Numbered from the stretch's first letter, positions 39,801 to 60,800 are shown. The stretch: 64,000 nt of DNA from Escherichia coli (GCF_016026235.1 NZ_CP065613.1); one strand, 5' to 3'. Program-made: the numbers.

Positions 39801-42800
39801 CTGACGAGGTACTGGCCCTGCGATTGCCTGAAAACGGCTCACAACTGCACCATTCATAATCACATCGCATAAACCACAGACCGGACTGACTCCGGAAAAA
39901 CAGAGGCCCGCCCCCGGGCCTCCCCGGATTCATCCGTTTCCCTGTTCAGCCTGACAGCACGCCCCGGCGGCCGGATGACAGACTCCGCTTCGGTAAGCAA
40001 AGCGGTCTTCTGTGATTCCGCCAGTTGCGGCTTATTCATTACTCAACGTCAAACGCCCGAATTGAAGCCAAATCATCCAGACCGCTCAGCTCCTCTTTCA
40101 TTTCACGCTGACGGCGATAAATCTCATCGTTGCGATCGACCTGCGCCTGCACCATTGCTGCCGCCAGTTCTTCCAGTTCCGGCATCGACAGTTTCACCTG
40201 CTGATTATCGGCATCGCTCCACGCCATATGTGTTTGTGCTGTGACAGATTTTGCCAGCATGACTACCGGGGACAGGCGGCCCAGTGAGTCGGGGCCAGCA
40301 TTCCAGATACGACCGTTCCATTCAAACGTGAACGGCTTCGCCTCCTGTTCTGTGCGCCATGCTTCAATTTCCTGACGTCTGGCCTCTCTGGCCGCTTCCA
40401 GCATTTCTGGTGTCACAGTGAATGGGGCTATCTCACCCCATTTGCCACTTTGCAGTTCCTGCCAGATTTGCTGACCCGTCGGTGCGACATCATCAGCGGT
40501 GGCTGTGTAGGGAACTGCCTGGTCCCTGTCGTCAAAAAAAACGTCACAGTCTACTGCGCCACTTTCGGTATAACGGGGATTAATGATTTTTTTAATTTCC
40601 ACGGTGCATTCCTCACGATGTGCGAATAAAAAGCCCGGGCATTGCGCCAGAGACATGTGCATCCGGCACCCCGGACAGGGCGCAATATGACCCCGGTAAT
40701 GAATGCTCTGAACATCCCGTAATGAAAAATTGTGGGTATGCTATATGCGTTCCGGTGGGAGTACTGGGCACTGAAATCCCCACCGGTCCCAGTCGTGAGC
40801 CTCTGTATGACTGCCCCCTGACAAGTCTGATGACTTTATCACCGTCAGCTTCTCCCTGGTACGCAGCAATAATCAGCCCGCCAATGTCAGGGTCTCCCCA
40901 TCTGTTGCAGACAGAGCTCGCCACGATTCTGTAAATAATATCTTCTGTGGTTATATTTATTTTCACCCAGTCAGTCAGTCTGGATATGGGCCAGTAGCAG
41001 TAGCGGGTGTGATAAATGGGGCCGTTAATGCCGTAAAAAGTAAGGGATTTGGCTCTGTACCGCGGTTCTGTTGTCTCAGGGCGTGCATCAGTCCACCGGA
41101 TGCTGAGCACCCCTTCAAACCGTGTGTCGGGTATGATGCCCAGGCGGCCAGCAACGGAATACTCACCTGGCAGCGCATTCCTTACCCAGGCCAGGAAATC
41201 ACTCTTAGTGTCAAAACGGATAACATCTTCAGGCAGAAAAGCACACCCAAAGCCGAATGCGCCGGGTATCGCCAGACGGCCTTTTGTCCGATCGTAAATG
41301 TCGCTCTGTGCTTCCATCGTGGCCGCACTTTTCAGCCCCAGATTATCCCGGGACTTCTGTTGTGCCTTTTCGCCTGCTGCTGCGATTTCAGACAGATGGT
41401 TAGCCGTTTTCAGAGTGCCGGTCAGCGCAGCATCAATGTCATTTTTGGCCTGTTCTGCTGCGCGGGCATAACCTGCGGCTGCCTGTGCACGCTGACCGGA
41501 TAAGACGGCGTTTTTCCCCGTGCTTTTCACGTCTTCCGCAGTGGCCTTTCTGTCCTCTGCAGTGGCAACTGCATCCTGTCTGGCATTCTCCGCAAAACGT
41601 TGTGCATCATCACGGGCCGTTGCGGCTGCCGCCACATCCTGCGCCGTCTGCTGTGCGTTTCCGGCTGCGCTCCCGGCACTCTGCTGCGCCTGCGCCACCA
41701 TTTCCTCAAAGCGCTTCATCACCTCCGGACGTAAATCACCATCCTTTGGTGCATTCAGAAACGCGTTCAGTGTCCCCGGTGCATCAGTCGGTGCCACATC
41801 AATATCCCCGACACGGGTTGGCTGCCAGCCGTTACAGTGAAGCGCAACCTCGTAATACCCCGGCTCAGCCTCAATCACATAAGCACCGTTATTGTCCGTC
41901 ACGCAAGTGGCAACAACGTGTGCCACAACGGTCGGACTGGTTCTTCTGGCCCGCAGTTCAATCGCACAATTTACGACAGGTTTACCCGCCCCATCTTTCA
42001 GTACACCTGAAATCTTTACTGCCATATTCACCCCACAAAAAGCCCGCCTGAAACGGCGGGCTGTCATAACACTGTGTTACCTGGCTAATCAGAATTTATA
42101 ACCGACACCCACGATGAAACTGTTGGTACGCCAGTCACCGCTGCCGGAGCCTTCATAAGCGACGTCAACGGCCACGGATTCGGTCGGGTTAAACTGCACG
42201 CCAGCTCCCCACGCCAGAGACGTGTTGCTGTGGCGACCGTCATCACTTCCGGTCAGCACATCGTGCGTTTTCCCCTTGTTGTCAGTTACGCGGAGATAAT
42301 CCCCGGAGAAGGTCGACACACGGCTGTAAGCCACGCCCGCCATCGCATACGCGCTGAACCATTCATTCACGCGCACAGACGGCCCCGCCATCACGCTGAA
42401 CCAGCGGTTACGCACGGAATCCTCATGCCAGCAGGTATCGCTGTAATGCGTTTTTTGCTCATCTTCAGCGTTGGCATAGCTGAATGACGTCACCAGCCCC
42501 AGCGTGTCCGTAAACTCATAACGGTATTTCACGTTAATCCCGTTCAGATCATCACTGCCGGGAGCGTTCGTCGAGGCATGAAGATACCCCGCGCTCAGCG
42601 TGGACTGATGTTCAGACGCCCATGCAGGCGCACCGGATACAGCCAGACAGATGGCTGCGGACAAAATGGCAGCATAAAGTTTACGCATAATTACCTCTCG
42701 CTTTTCTGCAATAAAAAAGGCACCATTTCTGGTGCCCGTATCTGGGTTATAAAATTCAGCTGATACTGATACCTGCTGTGGATTTCTTCATCACAACAAC

Positions 42801-57800: not shown

Positions 57801-60800
57801 TTCATCACTGAGCATGGGCACAAAATCCGGCTCCATTGCCTCGATCCAGAAAGGCACGCCAGCAGTCCGCACCAGCCCGCCGCCGGCACCACGAACCAGC
57901 TGGGCAAACACTTCACCATCACGTAACCAGGTACGCAGCAGCAGACGCTCGAGCATGGGGCGCGTATACTGCCCGGTCACATCCGGACTGACAGACCATT
58001 CCACCCACAAGCGACGGATAATCATTGCCAGCTCTGTGGCTATATCACCGTTCTTCAGTAATGGCTGGGGTTCGACAACGATCCCTTTTGCACCAATCAC
58101 CCGTTCCTCAAGTTTGTCGAAAACACCGATTACCAGATCATGATTGATGTCCAGAAAACGAGCCTGCTCCCGCAGGGAAACTGCACCGTACTTACTGAGC
58201 TGGTCGGCAGAACGATTTTCCCGCCGGGCTTTATGTGTACGAGTAGGCTTCACTGCCTCATAGGCACGAATTAATGCCCTTGAGCGCAATCTCGCAGCTT
58301 TCCAGCCAGGTGAAAAAACACCAATCACATCATCAAGAATTGCCATCAGAACCTCGCCAGTTTATAGCCCGGCGTCCCCCGTCGCCGCGCAGCCAGAGTC
58401 GCAAGGCGACGTTCCCACTCCTGCCGCCCCTGTCGGATCTCGGATAAGTTTTCCATGGTCATCTGCTGACCATTAAAAGTAATGGACTTTCCGTCCAGCA
58501 CTGCCATTTCCGCATTGATATAACGATGGATCATGGCTTCAATATCATTCTGGTTCACAACCATCCTCCGGAAGTCACCCATGGGTTTTCTTCATCAGGC
58601 ACCACTTTTTTTCGTTTCTTTTTTTTAACGGACACGGATACCGGCTCCGGCGAGGCTGACAGTCCGGCATCGTCCCTGACACGCTCCAGCCAGGTTTCCC
58701 TGCATGCCCATTCCGGCGCATCCGGCCACTGAATTTTCTCGTAACCATGCAGAATGACCAGAGCCTCGGCATACACCATCAGGTCAAAAGCTTCGTTGGC
58801 ACCTCGACCCGGCTTACTCCATTTCCCGTCACTGCTCCGCTCTTCATACGTCAGTTCGTCGTAAAACCAGCTCCCCAGCCAGTCAGGGAAATGCACATAG
58901 CCGGGACCTGGCGAGTCACGCCATAACGCGTTATTCACCCGGTCTTTCAGGGCATCCGTCTGAAGAAGCCAGAGCGGCACATCACCTGCGGCCTGCGCCC
59001 GTCGGCCCGTTCGTCCGGTGTTATCAGGGAATGTACGGGTGATCAGTTTTGCGCGCCGGATGCTGTCGCCCTTAAACAGGTAAATACGTTTACCAAGGCC
59101 ATCACGACGGCAACGACGCCAGAATTTATAGGCATTATCAGTGACCCCGTCTTCACCGCCGGAGTCCACCGCCATTGCCATCAGTCGCATTTGTTGAGAA
59201 GGATCGGAGGCCAACGGCCAGCTTTTATGAAAAACATCCGTCAGCAGGACATCCCAGTCCTCAGGATAACCAGCAGGATCAATTCGCAGGCTTTCTCCGT
59301 TGTTGTCACAACGCAATGACTGCGTGATGTTGTAACGATCAATAATCCAGCGTTCGCCACGGCAACCATAACCCGTTACCTGAACCACAAAACGGCGATG
59401 ACGTCCCGCCTGCACATCCACTGTCGCCGCCAGGAAATTAACACCATCCGGCACGCAGCGGGGAGGAACAGGCTCTGCCCGCTGCTCAAGCAGTTCACTT
59501 TTTCGTTGCTCCATGCTGGCGCGGGGAAGATAAGGTAATCCCCAGTCGGTGTTGATAACCGCCCTGAGTGTTTCTTCACTTCCGGTTGTCTCGTATTCCT
59601 GTTCTGCAGTAAGCAGTTTGTAAACGAGTTGCGAGAGTGTCTGGTAAGCAGCTGCCGGACCCTCCATCCAGAATGACGCAATACGTGAACGCCTGGGATC
59701 ACCATAACGACTGCCATCCGCATTGATGGATTCACCATCCCGCAACCAGACCCCACGTCCGTTCAGCTCACGTTTTTGTTCAGGCATAATCCGTCCTGAA
59801 CAGGAAGGACACTGAATATAAGCCGCCTCACTTGCCAGCACGGGATCGGCAATATCACGGAAACCAGCAACCACATCGCCGCAGGGCTGAAAATACTCAC
59901 CACAGTGTGGACAGGGCCAGTACCAGCGACGGCGATCGCCACGGTTATAGAGCGACAGTATCCCCGTGGTTGGTGGAGCCTCATGCGGTGAAGTCCGTCG
60001 CCATTTCACATCCTTCACATCCCTGCCGGGGGAACTCTCCACCAGCGTCATACCACTGGACATAAATGTTGTGGTACGTTTTGAGGCAAGAGAGAAAGCA
60101 TCCCCCTCACCATCAATATCTTCCGGAAAACGGTCATAATCCGTCAGCGCGACGCATTTATAATCTGATGAGGACATGATATTGACTGACGGCCAGCCGA
60201 TTTTCAGGTAGTTGCCAGCAAGGAATGTTCTGTCATAAACGTTGTTGTCATTTTTGTTCGGACTCAGGCGACTGACCACTTCCGGGCTGACGCGAAACGT
60301 TCTGGCGAGTCGTTTTTTGGAGTGTTCGCGGGCTTTTTCCTCCGTCATCTGAATGATCAGCATATCAGCAGGATCGCAAATCACGTTGTAAATCACCCAG
60401 CCGTCAATCAGGCCGATAGTCTTGCCGGTTCGTGCCGGGCCAACAAATATCACTGCGTCGTATTCACGCGAGGCCAGGCAGTTCATCGGCTCAATAACAT
60501 ACGGTGCCACCAGCGGATCCCACGGGACTGAGTTCCCTGCCCCCATGGGCACCCGCATATACTGAGCAACGGCATCAGCAACCCGCATTCGTCTTGGTGC
60601 GCGAAGGATATAACCTGAATCGGTTCGTGCTGCCTTTGCGGTTTCCTGATTCAGCATTACTCCTCCTGCTGTAATTCCTCCTCATCATCCGCACCTGCTT
60701 CAGTCACCCGCAGGGCTATCTGATCGCGCAGATCATCAATAATGGACTGAACACGGCTCACAGCGGCAGGCTGCAGACCGCAGTCACGTTCAAGAATATC

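Follow-up and report, generated by a model that had tools for sequence, protein, structure and literature searches.

The late region of this 64,000-nucleotide stretch of an Escherichia coli chromosome (NZ_CP065613.1; hereafter the window) is very probably the virion-gene operon of a Gifsy-2/mEp460-type lambdoid prophage, of a kind very common in E. coli and Shigella, in which a fused protease-scaffold-capsid gene is combined with a lambda-like tail (Table 1). The host chromosome is Shigella-like; the prophage occupies its yecE site and carries ipaH cargo. The operon is unbroken on the minus strand from terS at 61150 to the tail-fibre genes at 40039, and thus contains and reaches beyond the late region at 42756-60657 that an earlier note had proposed. 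Its genes are ordered terS, GpA-type terL, head-tail adaptor, portal, ClpP-like protease/capsid, cement, Z-U-V-G-T-H-M-L-K-I-J, lom and stf, and within this series the head genes reproduce the Gifsy-2/mEp460 module of terS (DUF1441), terL (gpA), adaptor, portal (lambda family), fusion, DUF2190 cement and PF13856 protein. Compared with their Gifsy-2 counterparts, terL is 70% identical, the portal 64%, the 70-aa adaptor 55%, the cement protein 60% and the C-terminal 232 residues of the capsid protein 88%. A match of the adaptor to the gpW Pfam family was sought and none was found. The 91-aa PF13856 protein matches PDB 2PP6 (E 7e-18) and is likely a head-completion or neck protein, and the terminator-like hairpin of the window corresponds to a terminator annotated in mEp460 at the equivalent spot after the capsid gene. 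A search for the cos sequence of lambda/mEp213 type, GGGCGGCGNNCT, gave no match near terS and a total number of matches at chance level. Long ORFs on the plus strand, opposite J and K/L, are without family matches and were regarded as shadow ORFs.

Table 1. Features of the late region, in window coordinates.
Feature	Position	Strand	Basis
terS, small terminase subunit, DUF1441 family	60657..61150	-	Pfam DUF1441 and PHROG 141, on intact relative
terL, large terminase subunit, lambda gpA family, 700 aa, intact	58555..60657	-	GpA_ATPase and GpA_nuclease
Head-tail adaptor, 70 aa, lambda W position	58346..58558	-	PHROG 118, E 3e-34
Portal, lambda family, 501 aa	56841..58346	-	Phage_portal_2, E 6e-80
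Tripartite ClpP-like protease / scaffold-linker / major capsid protein gene	54838..56896	-	NCBIfam NF045540
ClpP-like protease domain, fusion residues ~31-191	56324..56806	-	CLP_protease, E 9e-37; NF045542
T4 run in linker, T5 in relatives	56197..56200		
Major capsid protein domain, Mu gpT-like, fusion residues ~390-683	54847..55730	-	Phage_capsid_4
C5 run, C6 in relatives; second frameshift, ~residue 446 of fusion	55559..55563		
Terminator-like hairpin, then T run, directly 3' of capsid gene	54801..54814	-	
Decoration/cement protein, DUF2190, 107 aa	54428..54751	-	Phage_cement_2, PHROG 122
91-aa protein, Gifsy-2 STM1035 family, lambda FII position	54160..54435	-	PF13856, PHROG 153
Z, tail completion protein	53564..54148	-	Minor_tail_Z, E 1e-73; 49% identity to lambda Z
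U, tail terminator	53166..53567	-	Phage_tail_U; 53% identity to lambda U
V, tail tube protein, C-terminal Big_2	52415..53155	-	Phage_TTP_12, Big_2; 56% identity to lambda V
G, tail assembly chaperone	51971..52356	-	TIGR01674
T, -1 frame extension of G	51633..51962	-	TIGR01715 and sequence
H, tape measure protein	48621..51661	-	tape_meas_lam_C
M	48292..48621	-	Phage_min_tail; 56% identity to lambda M
L	47584..48282	-	Phage_tail_L; 92% identity to lambda L
K, JAB and NlpC/P60 domains	46835..47578	-	97% identity to lambda K
I, overlaps K end as in lambda	46290..46937	-	Lambda_tail_I; 77% identity over full-length lambda I
J, tail tip / host specificity, 1157 aa	42756..46229	-	Six J-specific Pfam domains; 82% identity to lambda J
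Lom-family outer membrane protein	42089..42688	-	Ail_Lom, E 2e-125
Side tail fibre gene (stf-like N terminus) and DUF4376 gene	40039..42025	-	phage_tail_N, DUF4376

The portal and the ClpP-like protease that the earlier note had named are both present, and the protease belongs to a larger gene that as sequenced is distributed over three frames (56896-56198, 56201-55527 and 55569-54841). The three ORFs tile the NCBIfam family NF045540 at profile positions 2-202, 242-413 and 421-651 with scores of 318, 236 and 368 bits, each below the curated cut-off of 475 bits only because of the frameshifts; an intact relative scores 981.5 bits. Restoring two bases yields an ORF of 686 aa that is 99.9% identical to WP_197932892, an annotated member of the family, and the fusion is a single annotated ORF in mEp460 (652 aa), Gifsy-2 (696 aa), E. 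coli FDAARGOS_943 (686 aa) and GCA_900449985.1 (686 aa). Among complete E. coli genomes, 2077 of 5426 (38%) carry it. In an alignment of the protease domain with E. coli ClpP, AASM and MIH coincide with the catalytic serine and histidine motifs of ClpP.

In terS, the fusion (twice), G and H, the frame is broken by C or T runs that are each 1 nt short, five in all: the window reads C4 at 48818, C4 at 52060, C5 at 55559, T4 at 56197 and C5 at 61038, where relatives read C5, C5, C6, T5 and C6, respectively. The terS frame is lost at codon 38 by the run at 61038-61042; tblastn with the intact 164-aa protein finds it as two fragments that lie in different frames, each 100% identical, and addition of one C restores the ORF. 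In G the run at 52060-52063 leads to a premature stop at 52039, with two frames in tblastn and a repaired product of 128 aa at 100% identity, and in H the run at 48818-48821 breaks the frame 65 codons before the end of the gene, again with two tblastn frames. The second frameshift of the fusion falls ~56 residues into the Phage_capsid_4 match. With the five bases inserted, all ORFs are restored at 98.8-100% identity.

We consider that these contractions are probably homopolymer errors left uncorrected in repeated DNA of the source assembly; otherwise they are very recent inactivating mutations. Against the same locus of GCA_900449985.1, in which every gene is intact, window positions 32756-62287 (29.5 kb) differ by one substitution and exactly five deletions, the opposite of the usual ratio, as substitutions normally outnumber indels. 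An IS insertion near 62284 distinguishes the two, and they are therefore not one assembly of one culture. All five changes are homopolymer contractions, a typical long-read error, and four of the five lie in 50656-61649, a segment duplicated at 99.9% in the GCA_900449985.1 genome (L016), where polishing presumably often fails. The truncated products of the window that we looked for, a 275-aa protease ORF and a 958-aa H, are both without a record in the public gene index, and other public assemblies of the prophage contain many homopolymer differences in both directions. That the frameshifts are instead real, leaving a recently inactivated defective prophage that makes no terminase, capsid, tail chaperone or tape measure, is possible but doubtful. 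Such decay would agree with the pseudogene and IS load of Shigella-like genomes, and all five frameshifts do fall in structural genes of a prophage with ipaH cargo, in a lineage rich in IS elements. Paralogous copies moreover share the short allele at some sites (L014 at 55563, L016 at 56200), and gene conversion could spread short alleles between them. The unique DNA of the window also speaks for real mutations: no indels were found against close relatives in the remaining ~46 kb, which rules out an assembly that is error-prone throughout. Of the G/C runs with a length of 5 or more, 4 of 15 are contracted in the late region versus 0 of 29 elsewhere (p approximately 0.01). Clustering of deletions in the late region could also come from relaxed selection on a decaying prophage. 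It is very improbable that the C and T runs in structural genes are hypermutable tracts that repeatedly silence virion production while sparing cargo (ipaH, lom), an arrangement that, if true, would account for short runs recurring in the independent assemblies L012, L014 and L016. The five one-base gaps are probably assembly errors, and calling the prophage defective is premature.

Downstream of the head genes, Z-U-V-G-T-H-M-L-K-I-J follow the lambda order and each matches a lambda tail Pfam or NCBIfam family, bearing out the claim of a lambda-like tail from J through Z, with identities to the lambda proteins of 24% to 97% in BLASTP. H is 61% identical to Gifsy-2 H and 24% identical to lambda H. 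A heptamer GGAAAAG at 51983-51977, two codons before the G stop, is a candidate for the predicted G-T slip site by analogy with lambda GGGAAAG; the G frameshift at 52060 lies upstream of it, and as sequenced the site is not reached in frame.

E. coli FDAARGOS_943 carries two prophages whose tail DNA is 100% identical over 13.7 kb and 99.9% identical over 1.5 kb and whose shared tail homology stops at the Z start codon; one has a lambda-type head and the other the head type of the window. Head modules are exchangeable on the tail type of the window and module swapping is real, and the FDAARGOS_943 pair provides a clean textbook case of head-module exchange at a gene boundary. The recombinant lambdoid architecture read by the earlier note holds to this extent, but it is not peculiar to the element, as mEp460, Gifsy-2 and cdtI share it. 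We regard it as highly unlikely that the element itself is a fresh recombinant between a lambda-like tail phage and a portal/ClpP-head phage, with a junction diagnostic for classification. The sharp junction at the Z start codon between prophages with the same tails and unlike heads would fit such an origin, as would an L-K-I-J block far nearer to lambda than the remaining tail, but Gifsy-2, cdtI, mEp460 and others combine head and tail in the same way, the fusion gene is widespread in E. coli genomes, and Z-U-V-G-T-H are at least as similar to Gifsy-2 as to lambda. A fresh origin is largely refuted by the collinearity with mEp460, which at 92% spans the head-tail boundary.

The head had been described in the earlier note as having a single large capsid gene with a GTG start overlapping the protease stop. 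The overlap exists (GTG 56072-56070 with TGA 56071-56069), but both the apparent protease stop and the GTG 'start' at 56072 are created by the T4 run at 56197-56200. The ORF from this GTG is only 217 aa long, and the Phage_capsid_4 match is divided, with profile positions 7-49 in this ORF and 57-261 in a third ORF at 54838-55539 in another frame, so that no single large GTG-started capsid gene is found. Judged from sequence, the protease stop and GTG capsid start are a frameshift product and mark no gene boundary. The idea of a functional split form, an unfused variant of the tripartite gene in which the protease is made alone and scaffold-capsid translation re-initiates at the GTG, has in its favor that the GTGA overlap at 56072-56069 looks like translational coupling, but can hardly be right given that the downstream ORF breaks again at 55559 within the capsid domain, that the final 42 residues of the 'protease' ORF are out of frame relative to every relative, and that no gene of the public collection matches the split-form product. 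In an annotation, protease and capsid are best entered as one gene with frameshifts.

Together, the gene families and published work on Gifsy-2 and lambda allow a mechanism of virion assembly to be proposed. The late operon would be transcribed leftward from the minus strand, and a DUF1441-type small and gpA-type large terminase would package DNA through the lambda-family portal. The tripartite gene would encode a single polypeptide comprising the ClpP-like protease, the scaffold and an HK97-fold capsid protein, from which, after procapsid assembly, the protease domain would excise itself and the scaffold; the DUF2190 cement protein would then stabilise the expanded shell, and a tail of lambda type, built from Z, U, V, G/G-T, H, M, L, K, I and J with Lom and Stf, would be attached to the head. 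We presume autoproteolysis, T=7 assembly and cement binding by analogy with Gifsy-2 and lambda.

The architecture is already documented for Gifsy-2, cdtI and mEp460 and the fusion protein is already named by NCBI, so the scientific stakes are small and the practical value lies in annotation, where the element is best classed as a lambdoid prophage of Gifsy-2/mEp460 type that is located in yecE and carries ipaH. HK97 resembles the window in the tail tip, where M, L, K, I and J show 30-35% identity, and in part of H; HK97-fold capsid families (Phage_capsid_4, Mu gpT-like) also recognise the capsid protein of the window. The terminase, portal, protease and capsid proteins of the window have no similarity to HK97 gp1-gp5 in BLASTP at E<1e-3, and HK97 is ruled out as the head source. 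Lambda shares the order of the tail genes Z through J, with L, K, I and J 77-97% identical; nucleotide identity is 88.7% over window positions 43733-48759 (the H 3' end through J) and ~66% in Z-U-V, so that the sharpest break in similarity to lambda lies inside the tail.

The lambda head differs from that of the window. The earlier note had called the head unlike lambda B-C-Nu3-D-E, and had named alignment of the head proteins as lambda B/C/E homologues as the result that would count against its reading. Such homology is found in part, as terL and the portal belong to the same Pfam families as lambda A (24% identity, E 9e-17 in BLASTP) and lambda B (20%, E 1e-5), whereas BLASTP of the window head proteins against lambda C, Nu3, D, E, W, FI, FII and Nu1 gave no match at E<1e-3. 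By sequence comparison, terL and the portal are the only detectable lambda homologues in the head. For the other head genes, the Pfam families are CLP_protease, Phage_capsid_4, Phage_cement_2, DUF1441 and PF13856 in the window and Peptidase_S49, Phage_cap_E, HDPD, Phage_Nu1 and Phage_attach in lambda. Lambda has an S49 protease C with nested Nu3, in contrast to the ClpP-like domain that forms part of the capsid fusion here; the counterparts of Nu1, W, D, E and FII are assigned to other families or give no match to the lambda family, FI is absent from the window, and the cement gene comes after the capsid gene, the reverse of the lambda order.

Gifsy-2 has a late operon of identical order, from terS, terL, adaptor, portal, fusion, cement and the 2PP6-family protein through the tail genes Z to J. 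Its proteins are 41-88% identical to those of the window (head proteins 55-88%), with a nucleotide identity of only 66-73%. Unlike the window, Gifsy-2 carries lom and sodC inserted between M and L, and its fusion gene is not read in three frames. The tripartite capsid gene of Gifsy-2, STM1034.3n, was reportedly described by Effantin and colleagues in 2010 (Virology 402:355). A passage of PMC12315714, after Effantin et al. 2010, gives the prohead protease and coat genes of Gifsy-2 as fused, related lambdoid phages pair fused-type heads with lambda-like tails (PMC12315714), and Gifsy-2 is listed with phages bearing a trimeric cement protein at 3-fold axes (PMC8538268). The closest coliphages are mEp460, cdtI and phi458, which share the PGAP family 'ClpP-like prohead protease/major capsid protein fusion protein' (NF045540). 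Relative to mEp460, the window carries the five homopolymer contractions and a Pro/Thr/Gln-rich protease-scaffold linker that differs in sequence and length (686 aa versus 652 aa for the fusion), and from J to terS (43733-61175) the two are collinear throughout, with a nucleotide identity of 92%.

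Every gene of the late operon lies on the minus strand. Family assignments match each part that the earlier note had named, so its component list is real; the operon does occupy the span given there (42756-60657) but runs past both ends.

Genes of the prophage late operon
Gene	Coordinates	Strand	Family or description
terS	61150-60657	minus	DUF1441 family
terL	60657-58555	minus	GpA ATPase and nuclease domains
adaptor, 70 aa	58558-58346	minus	PHROG 118
portal	58346-56841	minus	Phage_portal_2, the lambda family
protease/capsid	56896-54838	minus	three ORFs in three frames; ClpP-like and capsid-like
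cement protein	54751-54428	minus	DUF2190
PF13856 protein, 91 aa	54435-54160	minus	PDB 2PP6 family
Z, U, V, G, T, H, M, L, K, I, J	54148-42756	minus	lambda tail families
lom, stf-like, DUF4376	42688-40039	minus	outer membrane protein and tail fiber genes

Terminator-like hairpins 3′ of the capsid gene, V, J and lom occupy the positions of terminators annotated in mEp460. Names attached to the PF13856 gene look like misnomers (Pfam "ATP-binding sugar transporter from pro-phage", PDB 2PP6, PGAP "DNA breaking-rejoining protein"); it sits at the lambda FII position and PHROGs groups it with tail/neck proteins. Two plus-strand ORFs antisense to J and K/L, 43542-45560 (672 aa) and 46888-48231 (447 aa), have no Pfam match and were rejected as genes; both are best read as shadow ORFs of coding DNA rich in G+C.

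A capsid GTG start overlapping the protease stop had been taken for a gene junction. Alignment indicates that this boundary is instead the product of a frameshift: the successive ORFs 56932-56069, 56072-55419 and 55539-54838 tile a single profile, NCBIfam NF045540, at positions 2-202, 242-413 and 421-651, and the Pfam Phage_capsid_4 match is divided between the second and third. The gene, a ClpP-like prohead protease fused to the major capsid protein, is one ORF in mEp460 (652 aa), Gifsy-2 (696 aa) and E. coli FDAARGOS_943 (686 aa). Aligned with relatives, the window has four Ts rather than five at 56197-56200, which creates both the TGA at 56071-56069 and the GTG that overlaps it, and five Cs rather than six at 55559-55563, within the capsid domain. 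The Pro/Thr/Gln-rich linker from protease to scaffold (~56110-56220) is unlike that of mEp460 in sequence and length (686 versus 652 aa overall), and its flanking sequences are >93% identical to mEp460.

Contractions of the same type also break H (48818-48821), G (52060-52063) and terS (61038-61042), and adding back the five missing bases makes all the ORFs whole again, at 98.8-100% identity to intact proteins. Assembly GCA_900449985.1 encodes an identical J protein at the corresponding chromosomal locus (aspS, yecD, dinI-like, ipaH, tail fiber, J) and has all late genes intact; window 32756-62287 differs from it by one substitution (49167) and exactly these five deletions. Elsewhere in the window (1-8000, 9294-31799 and 32756-48800), comparison with close relatives shows no indels, and four of the five contraction sites fall within 50656-61649, of which the GCA_900449985.1 genome holds a 99.9% identical second copy (L016). 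Since five homopolymer contractions accompany one substitution and cluster in duplicated DNA, a setting in which polishing often fails, the sequence comparisons suggest that they are probably uncorrected homopolymer errors. Genuine frameshifts arising from very recent prophage decay are a possible alternative, and the two genomes do not come from the same culture, because an IS insertion near 62284 separates them. The clustering in the late region is only moderately significant, since, among G/C runs of five or more bases, 4 of 15 are contracted there versus 0 of 29 elsewhere (p ~0.01, calculated from run counts). Homopolymer lengths also vary at many sites and in both directions among other public assemblies of the prophage. 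"Defective" annotation of these prophages may often stem from sequencing errors. For the window, the single practical caution is its five one-base gaps.

Relative to the window, CP026824.1 (L012) carries 14 G/C-run deletions over 10 kb, with terL, V, Z and H fragmented, and L016 has additional bases in T/A runs. The ~1.26-kb insertion element of GCA_900449985.1 lies between the KilA-N gene and Rz (4795-6059 of its stretch L017) and is absent at window ~62284-62287.

Protein families and the Gifsy-2 and lambda literature suggest how the operon would work. Late transcription would proceed leftward along the minus strand, terminase and portal would act as in lambda, and a tripartite polypeptide would be the joint source of protease, scaffold and coat protein. 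Aligned with E. coli ClpP, the protease domain shows Ser and His motifs of the ClpP type, so this domain would be able to excise itself and the scaffold once assembly is done. A trimeric cement protein would stabilize the shell, as PMC8538268 reports for Gifsy-2 and lambda. The adaptor and 2PP6-family protein would finish the head, and a lambda-type tail would attach. T lies in the -1 frame of G, and GGAAAAG, two codons 5′ of the G stop, is a likely candidate counterpart of the lambda slip site.

The prophage occupies the yecE site, adjoining yecD (36338-36904). Between host DNA and its tail-fiber end lie a DinI-like gene (37259-37507) and a plus-strand ipaH-family type III effector E3 ligase gene (38108-39859) with NEL and LRR_TTSS domains. 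An IS1 copy at 8000-8767 is 99.9% identical to IS1A of FDAARGOS_943; in a related genome, a prophage integrase region adjoins yebY beside this position.

BLASTP of window proteins against lambda, HK97 and Gifsy-2, the comparison that the earlier note had called for, bears out a lambda-like tail: Z through J all belong to lambda tail families, with 24-97% identity (Z 49%, U 53%, V 56%, G 29%, T 38%, H 24%, M 56%, L 92%, K 97%, I 77%, J 82%). A mosaic break falls within the tail, where 43733-48759 (the H 3′ end, M, L, K, I and most of J) is 88.7% identical in nucleotides to lambda 12965-18002, Z-U-V is ~66% identical, and G-T and the bulk of H do not match lambda in nucleotides. The 43733-48759 block is also the least similar stretch to FDAARGOS_943 (87-94%). 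The proposal of a head unlike lambda holds for protease, capsid and decoration, which lack a lambda match, but not for terL (24%, E 9e-17) and portal (20%, E 1e-5), the only lambda head homologs detectable by BLASTP. Window proteins gave no BLASTP match to lambda Nu1, W, C, Nu3, D, E, FI or FII or to any HK97 head protein, and nucleotide comparison with lambda gave none across the head region. The window head carries DUF1441, CLP_protease, Phage_cement_2, Phage_capsid_4 and PF13856, without a gpW match, whereas lambda carries Phage_Nu1, gpW, Peptidase_S49, HDPD, Phage_cap_E and Phage_attach; only GpA domains and Phage_portal_2 are shared. Identity to Gifsy-2 reaches 70% in terL, 64% in portal, 61% in the protease part, 88% in the capsid C-terminal part and 60% in the cement protein.

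Relative to lambda, the architecture is recombinant in the usual lambdoid sense. Two FDAARGOS_943 prophages share a stretch that spans ipaH and the tail as far as the Z start codon (13.7 kb at 100% identity plus 1.5 kb at 99.9%), beyond which one has Nu1-A-W-B-C(S49)-D-E-FI-FII and the other a fusion-type head; identical tails on two head types are direct evidence of module exchange. At yecE, FDAARGOS_943 carries the lambda-type head, with the fusion type at another locus (L003 and L006 of NZ_CP065615.1, set against window 38912-61760; tail modules 100% identical), and the window and GCA_900449985.1 carry the fusion type, a difference that points to exchange or inversion between paralogous prophages. 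The recombinant architecture proposed earlier is supported in part, with module exchange observed, but is neither new nor specific to this element: the fusion gene occurs in 2077 of 5426 complete E. coli genomes, mEp460 is collinear with the window from J to terS at 92%, and Gifsy-2 and cdtI have the same gene order. The head-tail combination is already known, PMC12315714 describing fused prohead protease and coat genes in Gifsy-2 (citing Effantin et al. 2010) and lambda-like tails in related lambdoid phages with such heads.
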